Assembly (NCBI GenBank): GCA_048939465.1
Contig: JBHLPL010000011.1
Coordinates: 13,874 to 28,005 of the forward strand
Direction of reading: 5' to 3'
DNA from: Promethearchaeota archaeon
Lineage (GTDB): Archaea > Asgardarchaeota > Odinarchaeia > Odinarchaeales > JBHLKK01
DNA: 14,132 nucleotides
This document shows positions 4,238-8,095 of this stretch, one piece after another. Numbering within the stretch: the stretch's first letter is position 1; each line of letters opens with the position of its first letter. A model generated the notes under the pieces. That model did no database searches. It was not told the origin of the DNA and saw only the letters and a list, made by a program, of their open reading frames with translations. The position numbers were made by a program, and so were the translations under genes.

Positions 4238-4612
4238 TTAATGCCTATGACGAGACTCACCGCAGGGCTCCGTAAGCGGCACAAGCTTCTTATCCACATA
4301 GGCGTCAATGGCTTCCCTGACGCTTCCAACTTCCCCGGAAAAAACATCTATTCCCAAATCCTGAAACAAGGAGATAGCTCTCCGACCCAGTCCTTTCACA
4401 ATCAATACGTCGGGCTTGAGATCGACTATGAGCGCAGAAGCACGACCACGACCTCCAAAGTGCTCTCCTACGTTCTTTACAGGATTAAGACTCCTGACTT
4501 CGTTTTCCTTTGATAACTCAACCACTGCAAAGACGGGCGCTCTGCCGAAATGGCCAGAAATCTGAGACTTTTCTCCTGCAAATTCTTCAATTGGTATTAC
4601 AATCTTGACCAT
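4238..4612 (-). CDS. NifB/NifX family protein (second), with Cys/His C-terminus
   Basis: SGHFGRAPVF, EHFGG and GLGRRA motifs; ends PCGESRHRH. GAGGTGA Shine-Dalgarno at 4626-4620. Confidence 0.88.
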   Translation of the reverse strand: MVKIVIPIEEFAGEKSQISGHFGRAPVFAVVELSKENEVRSLNPVKNVGEHFGGRGRASALIVDLKPDVLIVKGLGRRAISLFQDLGIDVFSGEVGSVREAIDAYVDKKLVPLTEPCGESRHRH

Positions 4613-4619
4613 TGTTTAT

Positions 4620-4668
4620 TCACCTCTCTGAGCTGCCGAATTGATTTAGTACGTTTCAAGATTTAAAG
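4620..4668 (-). promoter_or_regulatory. Probable internal promoter (TTTAAAT TATA-like box) and Shine-Dalgarno for the nifX-mrp block
   Basis: Minus strand reads CTTTAAAT at 4668-4661 and GAGGTGA 7 nt before ATG 4612. The same CTTTAAATC occurs upstream of nikR. Confidence 0.5.
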
Positions 4669-4767
4669 CTTATATGCCCTTGATTTATGTATCTTCCAAA
4701 CAACGTTCCATCAGCCACTGCATCTGGAGTCCTTGGGTCTCCGCGATTTCTGACATTCTCATGCCGC

Positions 4768-5127
4768 TTATTGGTCTTCCTTCATTTCGTTGAGTCTTTT
4801 TCTTATATCTTTCAATTGCTGCTCCAGTAGGCGTTTTTGACTCTCAAGCATCTGCTTTTCTTGATCTTTAGTTAATTGAGGTCTCATTGAAGCTATTGGC
4901 TGCGGAATCTTTGCGGGATCTATCGCGGCTTTTGGGAGAGTTTGTAGATATGATTGAAACTGCGGCAGTTGTCCGCTCTGCATTATCCACTCGGCAGTGG
5001 GGGGCAATCCGGAAGGAGATCTTCCAACCCAGCCTGGCGAGAATCCGAAGCGAATCCATCCAGGGAGGCCAGTTATTTGGTACATCCATCGATGTCTTCG
5101 TCCTCTTCCACCACCTCGATAAGCCAC
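4768..5127 (-). CDS. DUF5320-like protein (Gly/Arg-rich N-terminus, C-terminal coiled coil)
   Basis: RGGGRGRRHRWMYQITGLPGWIRFG...GLPP motif and heptad tail QEKQMLESQKRLLEQQLKDIRKRL. GTG start with GAGGTGG Shine-Dalgarno. Confidence 0.8.
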   Translation of the reverse strand: MAYRGGGRGRRHRWMYQITGLPGWIRFGFSPGWVGRSPSGLPPTAEWIMQSGQLPQFQSYLQTLPKAAIDPAKIPQPIASMRPQLTKDQEKQMLESQKRLLEQQLKDIRKRLNEMKEDQ

Positions 5128-5141
5128 TTTCGACCACCTCT

Positions 5142-5172
5142 ATTTTGTGTATATGCACAAAATCTTTATAAA
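5142..5172. promoter_or_regulatory. Palindromic operator ATTTTGTG-tATATg-CACAAAAT plus TTTATAAA TATA box (copy 1)
   Basis: 8-bp perfect inverted arms at 5142-5149 and 5156-5163, TATA at 5165-5172. A second copy is at 7232-7261. Confidence 0.8.
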
Positions 5173-5185
5173 GTTATCTATTGAC

Positions 5186-5394
5186 CCCAAGAACGCTCGT
5201 CCGAAGGGTGAAGATGAATTGCGTTGAGTTTCATAGACTCTTCTGTAACGAATATTTGAATTGAGTCGAGGTAGACTCATCGATTCGTGAGAGTCGAGTT
5301 TCAGGGCAGGAACTGCCCGTAGAGCCTGTAAGGCGCATCCCTTTAGGGAATGGATGAAGCAAGAAGCTCCTTGAGAAAGGAAGTAATAGTTCAC
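5186..5394 (+). mobile_element. Non-autonomous IS200/IS605-family miniature derivative (left end + TnpB-tail/omegaRNA-like right end, no tnpA or tnpB)
   Basis: TTGAC lies immediately 5'. Left end CCCAAGAACGCTCGTCC-GAA-GGGTGAAGATGAATTG is an imperfect hairpin. The plus frame 5301-5357 reads SGQELPVEPVRRIPLGNG*, like archaeal TnpB C-tails. Right end is GATGAAGCAAGAAGC-TCCTT-GAGA-AAGGA-AGTAATAG-TTCAC. The match is to remembered family end patterns, not to a database hit. Confidence 0.68.
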
Positions 5395-5425
5395 TGTATG
5401 AAAAGCAGATCACAACAACGCAGTA

Positions 5426-6424
5426 TCATGACTTAAAGGAATAGTAGGTCTCATCCTGACTGACTTTGCTGATTATCAAATCCTTGGATCTGAGCCTGGT
5501 CATATGTTTGATAACTGTTGTAGGGGAAAGACTTAGCATACTAGAGATATCTACGACACGGCAAGGTCTACGCTTGAGAATTTCAAGTATTTCATCTTTG
5601 AGATTCTTGCCAGGCTTCCATTCTACACGCTTACCTCTCGCATCATGGATTCCATAGACCCAGAGTTTTTCTTCGCCCAAGGTCCCTTTGAGGTCGTTAG
5701 CAAACTGGCTTAGATCATTTTGGGAGACGGGTCGAACGAACCCCTCTGATGGAGGTCTCCAAGGTGTGTATACCTGGACTAGATCCGGATTAATATCAAT
5801 TATCGAGTTTATCAACTGTCGTCGGGCTTCTCCGTCCACATTTGATATTCCAGAAGTTGTTCGAAGGAGCATGACTTCTAAAGCTACCATACCTTCGGTT
5901 TTTGCCTTAAGACTCTTTATTGACTGCTTTATCTTCTGGATGCTTATGCCTCTAACAGGTCTGTTTATGGCTCTGAACGTTTTTTCATCCCCCGCGTCAA
6001 ACTTGTTGGTAATTATGTCCAATCTAGAGACGTTTTCCGCCACATCACTTCTATGTAGCTGAGAAGCATTTGTAAGGATCACCAAAGGGATTGAACCTAC
6101 CAGGGGGCGAATTCCGTCTATAATCTCCCCTAATTTTAGATTCAATGTAGGCTCACCGGTCCCTGAAAACGTAACTACATCAATAGTGTCAATATCAATT
6201 CCGGTAAGGAATTGATTAAATTCATCTATTATTCTGCCAGGTGTGGGGAGATCCTCATTTACTTTTCCGGGATCTGACACATGAATCTTTGTTCTTCCCA
6301 ATTGGCAATATATGCAATCAAAAGTGCATTTCTTCGGTAATGTTGTGGTATCTATTCCTAAAGATCGGCCGAATCGCCACGATGGGACAGGTCCATAAAC
6401 AGTCTTCAAAAATCTGACCTCCAA
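5426..6424 (-). CDS. Radical SAM protein (TYW1/wyosine-synthase-like, COG0731-type) with C-terminal winged-HTH-like segment
   Basis: YGPVPSWRFGRSLGID, CTFDCIYC (CxxxCxxC), FSGTGEPTL, ILTNAS. The C-terminal ~55 aa (EILEILKRRP...LSLSPTTVIKHMTRL...) look like a wHTH. TTG start. Confidence 0.88.
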   Translation of the reverse strand: MEVRFLKTVYGPVPSWRFGRSLGIDTTTLPKKCTFDCIYCQLGRTKIHVSDPGKVNEDLPTPGRIIDEFNQFLTGIDIDTIDVVTFSGTGEPTLNLKLGEIIDGIRPLVGSIPLVILTNASQLHRSDVAENVSRLDIITNKFDAGDEKTFRAINRPVRGISIQKIKQSIKSLKAKTEGMVALEVMLLRTTSGISNVDGEARRQLINSIIDINPDLVQVYTPWRPPSEGFVRPVSQNDLSQFANDLKGTLGEEKLWVYGIHDARGKRVEWKPGKNLKDEILEILKRRPCRVVDISSMLSLSPTTVIKHMTRLRSKDLIISKVSQDETYYSFKS

Positions 6425-7231: not shown

Positions 7232-7261
7232 ATTTTGTGAATATACACAAAATTTTATAAA
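7232..7261. promoter_or_regulatory. Palindromic operator ATTTTGTG-aATATa-CACAAAAT plus TTTATAAA box (copy 2), divergent promoter region
   Basis: Arms at 7232-7239 and 7246-7253 are identical to copy 1; TATA at 7254-7261. Lies between the MBL gene (-) and DUF134 (+). Confidence 0.8.
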
Positions 7262-7319: not shown

Positions 7320-7661
7320 ATGCAGATGCGTAGACGATGGCGAAAAGGTCTAAGAAGGCCAGGTCGGCCAACCAAGCCGCGAACCTTGGAAACCCCGCCG
7401 GAAATCAGACACTTCATACCCGCCATTCCCAAAGACAGGTTAGATGATTTTCCTGATAATCCCATTTTTCTATATTATGACGAATTTGAAGCCTTGAGAT
7501 TGGTAGATCTGGAAGACCTGTCCCAAGAAGAAGCAGGGGAGAGAATGGATATCTCTAGAGGTACAGTTTGGCGTCTTATCGAGGAAGGTCGTAAAAAGGT
7601 CATTCAAGCTCTCATTGAAGGAAGAGAATTGTTCATAGTACCCAGAGAAGCTGAAGGGTAG
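7320..7661 (+). CDS. DUF134 / UPF0251 family HTH DNA-binding protein
   Basis: GRPTKPR...DEFEALRLVDLEDLSQEEAGERMDISRGTVWRLIEEGRKKV...ALIEG. GGTGA lies 6 nt before ATG 7326, which is the likelier start. Confidence 0.92.
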   Translation: MQMRRRWRKGLRRPGRPTKPRTLETPPEIRHFIPAIPKDRLDDFPDNPIFLYYDEFEALRLVDLEDLSQEEAGERMDISRGTVWRLIEEGRKKVIQALIEGRELFIVPREAEG

Positions 7662-7687: not shown

Positions 7688-8095
7688 CTAGAAAAGGACT
7701 GACTTTATGTGTTTTGTGCCCTTGCTGCCGAATATCTCTTCGGCTAGATCATTAATCTTCTCCGCTTTTCCTCTCACTACGATGACTTCCAGACAGTTCT
7801 CTTCATCAAGATGAACGTGAAGTGTGGAACTTATAATGTCTTCATAATGATGTTGAGTGTGTGTCAAGCCATCAGAAGCCCCCCTAATAGTATGATCAAA
7901 AAGAACTATTAGAGTACCAACTCTCTCTCCTTCGCTTCTCTGTAGCTCCTTGTATTCTGAGATGAAATTTCGTATGGCATCCCTGGTTGCTTCAGATCTA
8001 TTAGTGTAGCTGCTTTTTTCAACTATTGAGTCAAACTCACCCAGCAATTTCTTTGGCAGGGATATGCCCGTTCTGATGACCTTTTCCTTCTTCAT
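7688..8095 (-). CDS. nikR: Nickel-responsive transcriptional regulator NikR
   Basis: N-terminal ribbon-helix-helix (RTGISLP...NRSEATRDAIR). Ni-site residues are present: QHH, LHVHL (two His) and NCLEV. Confidence 0.95.
   Translation of the reverse strand: MKKEKVIRTGISLPKKLLGEFDSIVEKSSYTNRSEATRDAIRNFISEYKELQRSEGERVGTLIVLFDHTIRGASDGLTHTQHHYEDIISSTLHVHLDEENCLEVIVVRGKAEKINDLAEEIFGSKGTKHIKSVLF

Follow-up and report, generated by a model that had tools for sequence, protein, structure and literature searches.

A decayed, gene-less IS200/IS605 derivative in an Asgard archaeon, from a dispersed family carrying omegaRNA-like scaffolds

Structured intergenic DNA that is repeated around a chromosome, yet encodes no protein, can be the trace of a small RNA gene or of a mobile element; which of these lies around position 5,300 of the window, the whole 14,132-nucleotide stretch of Asgard archaeal DNA analysed here, and is it still functional? 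The original prediction described a gene-less IS200/IS605 mini-element, retaining a TTGAC target motif, a left-end hairpin and an omegaRNA-like scaffold, that could still be mobilised and supply a guide RNA to a TnpB nuclease encoded elsewhere. The short sequences on which this was based are all present: TTGAC at 5181-5185, hairpins at 5262-5279, 5304-5318, 5336-5340 with 5352-5356 and 5368-5381, and TTCAC at 5390-5394. The 235-nt stretch folds better than shuffled sequences (z of -2.46 on the plus strand and -3.11 on the minus strand), and comparison with Rfam gave no match, either across the whole window at the gathering score or at E values up to 10 over positions 4700-5900.

Elements of this kind have been characterised in Geobacillus stearothermophilus, where gene-less IS605-family (ISGst) PATEs keep both the left end (LE) and the right end (RE) and depend on one TnpA acting in trans; these PATEs 'often encode omegaRNAs' for the TnpB of another IS, the ends of several tnpB families resemble one another, and next to the LE is a conserved TAM (Meers et al. 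2023, PMC10055086). The window segment is very probably a decayed member of such a group, which would have arisen by deletion within a tnpB-bearing element, spread as a miniature form and provided omegaRNA to a TnpB in trans, the particular copy in the window being largely dead.

Limits of the element and its copies in the genome

The genome searched was the window's own Asgard archaeal MAG (1.96 Mb in 152 contigs, 91% complete). In it the segment matches 22 other places; an iterated nhmmer search gave 14 full copies of 207-215 nt and several partial copies; one further copy, on contig C16, spans the whole model but without about 35 nt internally. The family thereby stands at around 16 diverged copies in 1.96 Mb, and PATE copies are also found in two congeners, G001 and G002. 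The expectation that other copies would exist alongside a full tnpA/tnpB parent was borne out for the copies and for tnpB, a parent of which lies on contig C2; the tnpA gene sits apart, on a separate IS605 on contig C105.

The flanks of all copies are mutually unrelated, and the limits of the repeat are sharp and shared. When copies were aligned with 45 nt of flanking sequence, similarity stopped in every one of them right after ..AGTTCAC, corresponding to window position 5394, and no motif is common to the copies after the RE; the right end predicted at TTCAC, with a guide starting at 5395, was accordingly placed to the nucleotide. On the left, similarity starts at a TTTAT-like 5-mer (TTTAT itself in 7 of 16 copies, with variants including TTTAC, GTTAT and TCTAT), with CT(T)CTTCTCCGCAAGAAGAC next to it. 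Column identity, averaged over pairs of copies, is about 0.27 in the flanks, 0.55 at 5173-5182, 0.53-0.89 inside the element and no more than 0.34 after 5394. Among the most conserved blocks (0.84-0.89) is the hairpin at 5258-5286, in which substitutions are mostly of U-A to U-G, changes tolerated only on the plus strand as RNA.

These alignments move the left boundary. As homology starts about 8 nt upstream of TTGAC, at GTTAT, TTGAC is not at the boundary, and the element occupies 5178-5394 (Table 1), a length of 217 nt in place of the approximately 209 bp that resulted from setting its first base at 5186. Nor can TTGAC have been the target motif: it falls inside the element, where it aligns with TTCTC or TTGCC of other copies, and the true motif is TTTAT-like. 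A TTGAC found upstream of the C2 tnpB element was also considered as a left end, and proved a coincidence, the LE consensus starting about 40 nt further in.

Within these limits there is no transposase or nuclease gene. The plus frame holds a 17-codon relic of a TnpB tail only, and the sole ORFs over the element, of 84 and 60 aa, are on the minus strand and run past it on one or both sides. With both ends matching those of the C105 IS605, the description of the segment as a gene-less IS200/IS605 mini-element holds.

Table 1. Features of the window copy, in window coordinates
Feature	Position	Strand	Observation
Whole PATE	5178-5394	+	Limits common to 14 full copies, the internally deleted C16 copy and partial copies
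TAM-like motif GTTAT	5173-5177	+	Left edge of copy-to-copy homology; family consensus TTTAT
Left end with degenerate subterminal hairpin remnant CTCGTCCGAAGGGTGAAG (5196-5213)	5178-5222	+	Aligns with the LE of the C105 IS605 and of the C2 tnpB element
Degenerate TATA-like box TTTCATAG	5229-5236	+	Family consensus TTTAAATA
Hairpin GAATTG..CGATTC around TGAGTC-N6-GACTCA	5258-5286	+	Specific to the mini-elements; segment aligns weakly with the tnpB 5' UTR
tnpB 3'-end relic and right end, equivalent to omegaRNA scaffold core	5300-5394	+	Homology to C2:27187-27281
TnpB C-terminal coding relic GQELPVEPVRRIPLGNG, then stop	5304-5357	+	Matches the C2 TnpB tail; no upstream continuation of the frame
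Scaffold helix P1	5304-5318	+	
Scaffold helix P2	5325-5327 with 5361-5363	+	
Scaffold helix P3	5334-5352	+	Inner TCCC/GGGA and outer pairs
Scaffold helix P4 (terminal hairpin)	5367-5387	+	
Right-end tip TAGTTCAC of the scaffold	5387-5394	+	
Would-be omegaRNA guide segment, flanking DNA TGTATGAAAAGCAGATCACA	5395-5414	+	Directly 3' of the conserved right-end cleavage site

The end sequences are more widespread than the 217-nt unit. Separate LE and RE profiles detected 78 LE and 49 RE sites in the 1.96 Mb, many of them solo left ends. Pairs of LE and RE carrying the same end motifs about 350 or 290 nt apart (for instance C10:12048-12395, C106:4101-4447, C137:14184-14539, C69:6875-7228, C38:1589-1878 and C66:3252-3543) constitute further PATE families, such that there are at least three size classes, of about 215, 290 and 350 nt.

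Comparison with the same-genus genome G001 shows the locus to be polymorphic. Between the same genes, at the orthologous site, the element is absent from G001: the flanks of the window site, which are 72-73% identical between the two genomes, are 41 nt apart there as against 260 nt in the window. The prediction that relatives would carry an empty allele was therefore right as to the absence of the element, but not as to the proposed junction TCTATTGAC/TGTATG (a slash here and below marks an element boundary or insertion point); homology to the left flank in G001 ends about 8 nt upstream of the end of TTGAC, and the intergenic DNA of G001 is too diverged for an empty site to be defined to the base. 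Over positions 4600-6400, the contigs of four metagenome runs from other studies gave no empty-site allele. Two of the runs carry both element junctions unchanged, and contigs break at the repeated core 5297-5332; since metagenome contigs drop rare variants, this lack says little.

A second site is informative at the level of individual bases. The tnpB of G001 encodes a protein 83% identical to the C2 TnpB, and its IS has inserted at a position that is unoccupied in the window's genome, on contig C16. The occupied sequence is ..GGTTTAT/TATTATCTTTTTCC...GTAGTTCAC/TATTATTG.., and the unoccupied one ..GCTTTAT/TACTGGTG.. (...CTTTAT/TACTGG), which indicates insertion 3' of TTTAT and a right-end cut after GTTCAC, a TATTAT repeat at the G001 site leaving a 6-nt ambiguity in the position of the left cut.

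The DNA beside the window copy has features of its own. A 22-nt palindrome, ATTTTGTG-N6-CACAAAAT, is present at window positions 5142-5163 and 7232-7253 and at C89:2468, these being the only three occurrences in the genome; when the minus strand is read, a TTTATAAAG-like TATA element comes after it. In the same-genus genome, in which neighbouring coding DNA is about 72% identical, the palindrome is conserved at 100%, and it resembles a repressor operator covering the promoters of minus-strand operons. The operons at these palindromes comprise a 119-aa ORF, a NifX-like protein and a NUBPL/Mrp ATPase, as well as metallo-beta-lactamase-fold and radical-SAM genes, and beside the second palindrome are NikR (7688-8095, minus strand) and a DUF134 regulator (7320-7661, plus strand). 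For a 537-aa protein of the window, the ESM Atlas offered only BNR/PKD/Kelch-like leads, all below 0.9, and no informative taxon. The PATE lies 5 nt beyond the TATA of the first palindrome promoter, hence the upstream (BRE-side) context of that promoter has been replaced.

Origin from a tnpB element and conservation of the scaffold

A single intact cognate tnpB is present in the genome, at C2:26093-27244, encoding a protein of 384 aa with the Pfam domains HTH_OrfB_IS605, OrfB_IS605 and Cas12f1-like_TNB. Over residues 2-362 this protein matches the structures of ISDra2 TnpB (PDB 8BF8, 8EXA and 8H1J) with an E value of 1e-60, and it contains GVDVGL, VFENL and DRDVN along with CxxC..CxxC, taken to be the RuvC D-E-D residues and a zinc ribbon. 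The coding sequence ends ..SGQELPVGPVRHIPLGNG and a stop codon, after which the element continues to ..GGGGCAGTTCAC/.

Window positions 5300-5394 are 82% identical to C2:27187-27281, comprising the tnpB 3' end and the right end. The plus-frame peptide GQELPVEPV, which had been thought to resemble a TnpB tail (5304-5330), continues as RRIPLGNG to a stop at 5357, and the resulting GQELPVEPVRRIPLGNG is identical to the C terminus of C2 TnpB at 15 of 17 residues; taken with the nucleotide identity, this establishes the peptide as a true relic of the TnpB tail. On the other side, the left 138 nt of the mini-elements align with the C2 element from the LE to just before the tnpB start codon, well over the first 70 nt or so and with gaps afterwards, the middle 55 nt having weak, gapped homology to the tnpB 5' UTR (C2:26040-26090). 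A single junction, GGTTT(C)AG/GGCAGG, is common to all the mini-elements and joins the tnpB 5' UTR to the last 95 nt. The TATA box TTTAAATA is conserved in the other copies, and TTTAAATG is found upstream of tnpB in the C2 and G001 elements; the box in the PATE would be the former tnpB promoter.

The mini-elements are thus homologous to the C2 IS1341-type element and its relatives in Hodarchaeota, Sifarchaeum and Borrarchaeum in the LE, the promoter region, the last 95 nt and the tip TAGTTCAC. They differ from the C2 element in lacking about 1.1 kb of tnpB coding sequence and in the middle 55 nt, which have diverged into a hairpin specific to the mini-elements. This points to an origin in which an IS1341-type, tnpB-only element suffered one internal deletion, from approximately the start codon to approximately codon 365 of tnpB. 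Such a deletion would leave the LE, the tnpB promoter and 5' UTR, the last 95 nt, in which the TnpB tail codons are at the same time the core of the omegaRNA scaffold, and the right end.

Strong conservation of the last 95-105 nt before the right end, a stretch that overlaps tnpB and continues downstream of it, is seen in MAGs labelled as Hodarchaeota, Sifarchaeum, Borrarchaeum, Methanoperedens and Methanosuratincola. An alignment of 30 sequences (14 tnpB-linked right ends, 15 mini-elements and one relic) gave a consensus fold of four helices, with compensatory changes in 16 of the 21 modelled pairs. Paired cells made up 95% of the total, against 36-53% when partners were slid, and none of 500 shuffles reached the observed values. 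Helix P4 is also the hairpin expected to be recognised by TnpA, so its covariation is not assignable to RNA alone; P1 and P3 are outside that hairpin. Changes from G-C to G-U and from U-A to U-G are frequent among the mini-elements, as fits an RNA read from the plus strand. One helix differs from that predicted, the covariation backing the inner TCCC/GGGA and outer pairs of P3 instead of a pairing of CATCC with GGATG.

A covariance model, R1, was built from the 14 tnpB-linked archaeal right ends only (from Hodarchaeota, Sifarchaeum, Borrarchaeum, Methanoperedens and Methanosuratincola MAGs and from C2). The full length of the model aligns with window positions 5290-5394, plus strand, with a score of 71.3 bits and an E value of 3.4e-21, and in the window's own genome it detects 18 sites of the family at E values of 4e-11 or less, in agreement with the original prediction of an omegaRNA-like scaffold. 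The best R1 score of all (107 bits) belongs to the right end of a second tnpB 3' relic, C73:1803-2347, in which 152 aa at 25% identity precede a final 21 aa at 76%, and which has no intact gene upstream.

The TnpBs of Methanoperedens (L063 and L064) and Methanosuratincola (L075) are only about 50% identical to that of C2, yet their elements have the same tip, GTAGTTCAC, and the same scaffold architecture, with helices that are fully compensated. The retention of tip and scaffold at this level of TnpB identity points to an RNA and end module common to several archaeal phyla.

Mobilisation of the family and decay of the window copy

Only one Y1 TnpA gene was found in the genome, at C105:1150-1548 (Pfam Y1_Tnp, 126.7 bits), beside a different tnpB of 433 aa. 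This C105 IS605 shares both ends with the mini-elements, its LE being TTTAC/CTTCCTCTCCGCAAGAAGACTCCATCCGGAAGGGTGGAG (also TTTAC/CTTCCTCTCCGCAAGAAGACTCCATCC..) and its RE ..GGGTGGAGTAGTTCAC/ (also ..CCCCATCCTTTAGGGTGGAGTAGTTCAC/). A third tnpB is split over the contig ends C70:1-926 and C55:5735-6043, with the overlap peptide FLEYKATLKGIRVVYVKPHYTSKEC, and has the right end ..GGTGGGGTAGTTTAC/; these contigs break at a repeat, as Logan contigs do at window positions 5297-5332. The right ends of the C2, C105 and C70/C55 elements are alike, such that several nuclease families share one kind of end.

Because both of their ends match those of the genome's only tnpA-bearing IS605, the mini-elements were presumably mobilised in trans by a Y1 TnpA. 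By analogy with the established mechanisms of IS200/IS605 elements and TnpB, the enzyme would act by single-strand 'peel and paste' at TTTAT and GTTCAC. The mini-element spread to at least 16 sites, in each case inserting with no target duplication on the 3' side of a TTTAT-like motif. If the retained TATA promoter is used, transcription would produce a scaffold of about 140 nt reading into the flank, an omegaRNA with flanking DNA as its guide. The 384-aa C2 TnpB would load this scaffold and flank guide (TGTATGAAAAGCAGAT.. in the window, from the segment 5395-5414) in trans and cut the empty site comprising TAM and guide, from which the copy would be restored by recombination. When 16-mers from the guide flanks were compared with the genome allowing up to two mismatches, each guide had 1-9 matches, where chance is estimated to give about one assuming uniform composition and more in AT-rich DNA, and the matches are therefore uninformative.

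There is little to indicate that such transposition continues. Pairwise identity has a median of 76% across the family, and even the closest pair of copies are only 86% identical, giving no sign of recent transposition. The C105 TnpA reads DYFHMIF where ISDra2 TnpA reads DHVHLLL, the first histidine of the HUH motif being replaced by tyrosine (YFH), a position at which the TnpA of another family-level relative keeps DHIHLF. The catalytic tyrosine context, KKYIENQ, is kept in C105, and this TnpA may be inactive or an atypical transposase. With the sole detectable TnpA having YFH, present-day mobilisation is doubtful, and the combination of this substitution with the lack of near-identical copies suggests that the family is not moving at present, in a genome that is 91% complete and of which another tnpA may be unassembled.

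Whatever the state of the family, the window copy is the most decayed of the 14 full copies. It has 20 private changes at near-invariant columns, compared with 1-15 in other copies, to which its median identity is 68%. Clear LE and RE hairpins are present both in the family consensus and in the C105 IS, and the RE arms covary. In the window copy, a 2-nt deletion in the 5' arm has left no stable DNA hairpin at the left: the predicted left-end hairpin folds at -1.3 kcal/mol, a value equalled or bettered by 176 of 200 shuffles. Of the RE hairpin 5 bp are left, and there are changes in the 3' arm of the terminal hairpin. The TATA-like box reads TTTCATAG against TTTAAATA, owing to a deletion and a substitution at 5231/5232, and in P2 the substitution G5362A disrupts a base pair that 28 of the 30 aligned sequences have as C-G.

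It is consequently unlikely that, as first proposed, this copy is still active, moved by TnpA and supplying a working omegaRNA with the guide TGTATGAAAAGCAGAT to a TnpB in trans. A full-length R1 match of 71 bits, the intact P1, P3 and tip TAGTTCAC, and the presence of an intact cognate TnpB are what would be expected of an active copy. Set against them are the degeneracy of this copy relative to every other full one, the loss of the LE hairpin as DNA, the damaged promoter box and the broken near-invariant scaffold pair; in addition, the TAM is GTTAT and not TTTAT, the only TnpA has YFH instead of HUH, and the TTGAC that was to serve as target motif does not do so. Mobility and much of the RNA function have probably been lost.

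Other readings and relation to known systems

The cassettes might also be considered collectively. The genus carries dozens of these protein-less units, each with its own putative promoter, scaffold and a different flank-derived guide, and one or very few TnpB genes are shared among them; used by the host or the TnpB, they could form a dispersed multi-guide library for genome surveillance or gene control in place of plain transposon homing. This is very improbable on present evidence; were it true, the system would fall naturally between transposon nucleases with one guide and CRISPR-like systems with many, in an archaeal lineage that is the closest one to eukaryotes.

Slightly less credible again is a takeover by the host, in which scaffolds have been kept as dispersed guides or small regulatory RNAs, for example steering the one TnpB or acting as antisense on neighbouring genes. 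The ratio of around 16 scaffold-bearing mini-elements to one intact cognate tnpB is compatible with this, as are the greater conservation of RNA blocks than of linkers and the position of the window copy, directly beside a conserved promoter/operator and oriented towards a radical-SAM/ArsR gene, at its 3' end. Guides that are simply the local flanks are, though, what a selfish element would be expected to have, the element is absent from the orthologous site of a congener, and conservation would be just as uneven were spread confined to functional master copies. Least plausible of all is the insertion of a full-length tnpB element at the window site followed by deletion of the gene in place, with no movement as a mini-element, which would account for a segment having both ends and the tail of a tnpB element but not for the sharing of one junction and architecture by 14 full copies at unrelated loci, where a single deletion followed by spread is required in place of 14 identical, independent deletions.

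The preferred reading, a PATE family derived from a tnpB element and represented in the window by a largely dead copy, has clear precedents. That PATEs can carry omegaRNAs for use in trans has been published before (Meers et al. 2023, PMC10055086). The archaeal family resembles the Geobacillus stearothermophilus PATEs in being gene-less, in its shared ends and omegaRNA scaffold, in the occurrence of several tnpB families with similar ends and in having a TAM at the LE; it differs in its Asgard archaeal host, its TATA-box promoter and its other TnpB clade and scaffold, and is known here from sequence alone. As in the TnpB-omegaRNA (reRNA) system of ISDra2 from Deinococcus radiodurans, the guide RNA would overlap the tnpB 3' end and right end and take its guide from the flank. 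Unlike that of ISDra2, which is TTGAT, the TAM here is TTTAT-like, and the two scaffolds are unrelated at the nucleotide level, with no Rfam match. Among archaea, the PATEs of Haloquadratum walsbyi (Dyall-Smith et al. 2011) are reportedly gene-less IS200/IS605 derivatives bounded by parental ends, and were described before the guide-RNA role. PATE, MITE, standalone and orphan elements all go unmentioned in a paper on archaeal circular omegaRNAs (PMC12558985). Particular to the present case are the Asgard host, the archaeal-type promoter, the TnpB clade and the high ratio of cassettes to nuclease genes.

For annotation, the analysis accounts for a structured, repeated intergenic segment that could otherwise be mistaken for a new small RNA. 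The R1 model and the TTTAT-like TAM are usable for the TnpB clade of the Hodarchaeota-, Sifarchaeum- and Borrarchaeum-labelled MAGs and of some methanogen-related archaea. More broadly, an Asgard archaeon proves to be rich in putative TnpB guide-RNA cassettes that lack a nuclease gene, with their boundaries, parent, tnpA-bearing relative and RNA model now documented; as relatives of TnpB (Fanzor) are also found in eukaryotes, the Asgard lineage is one in which such cassettes are of interest.
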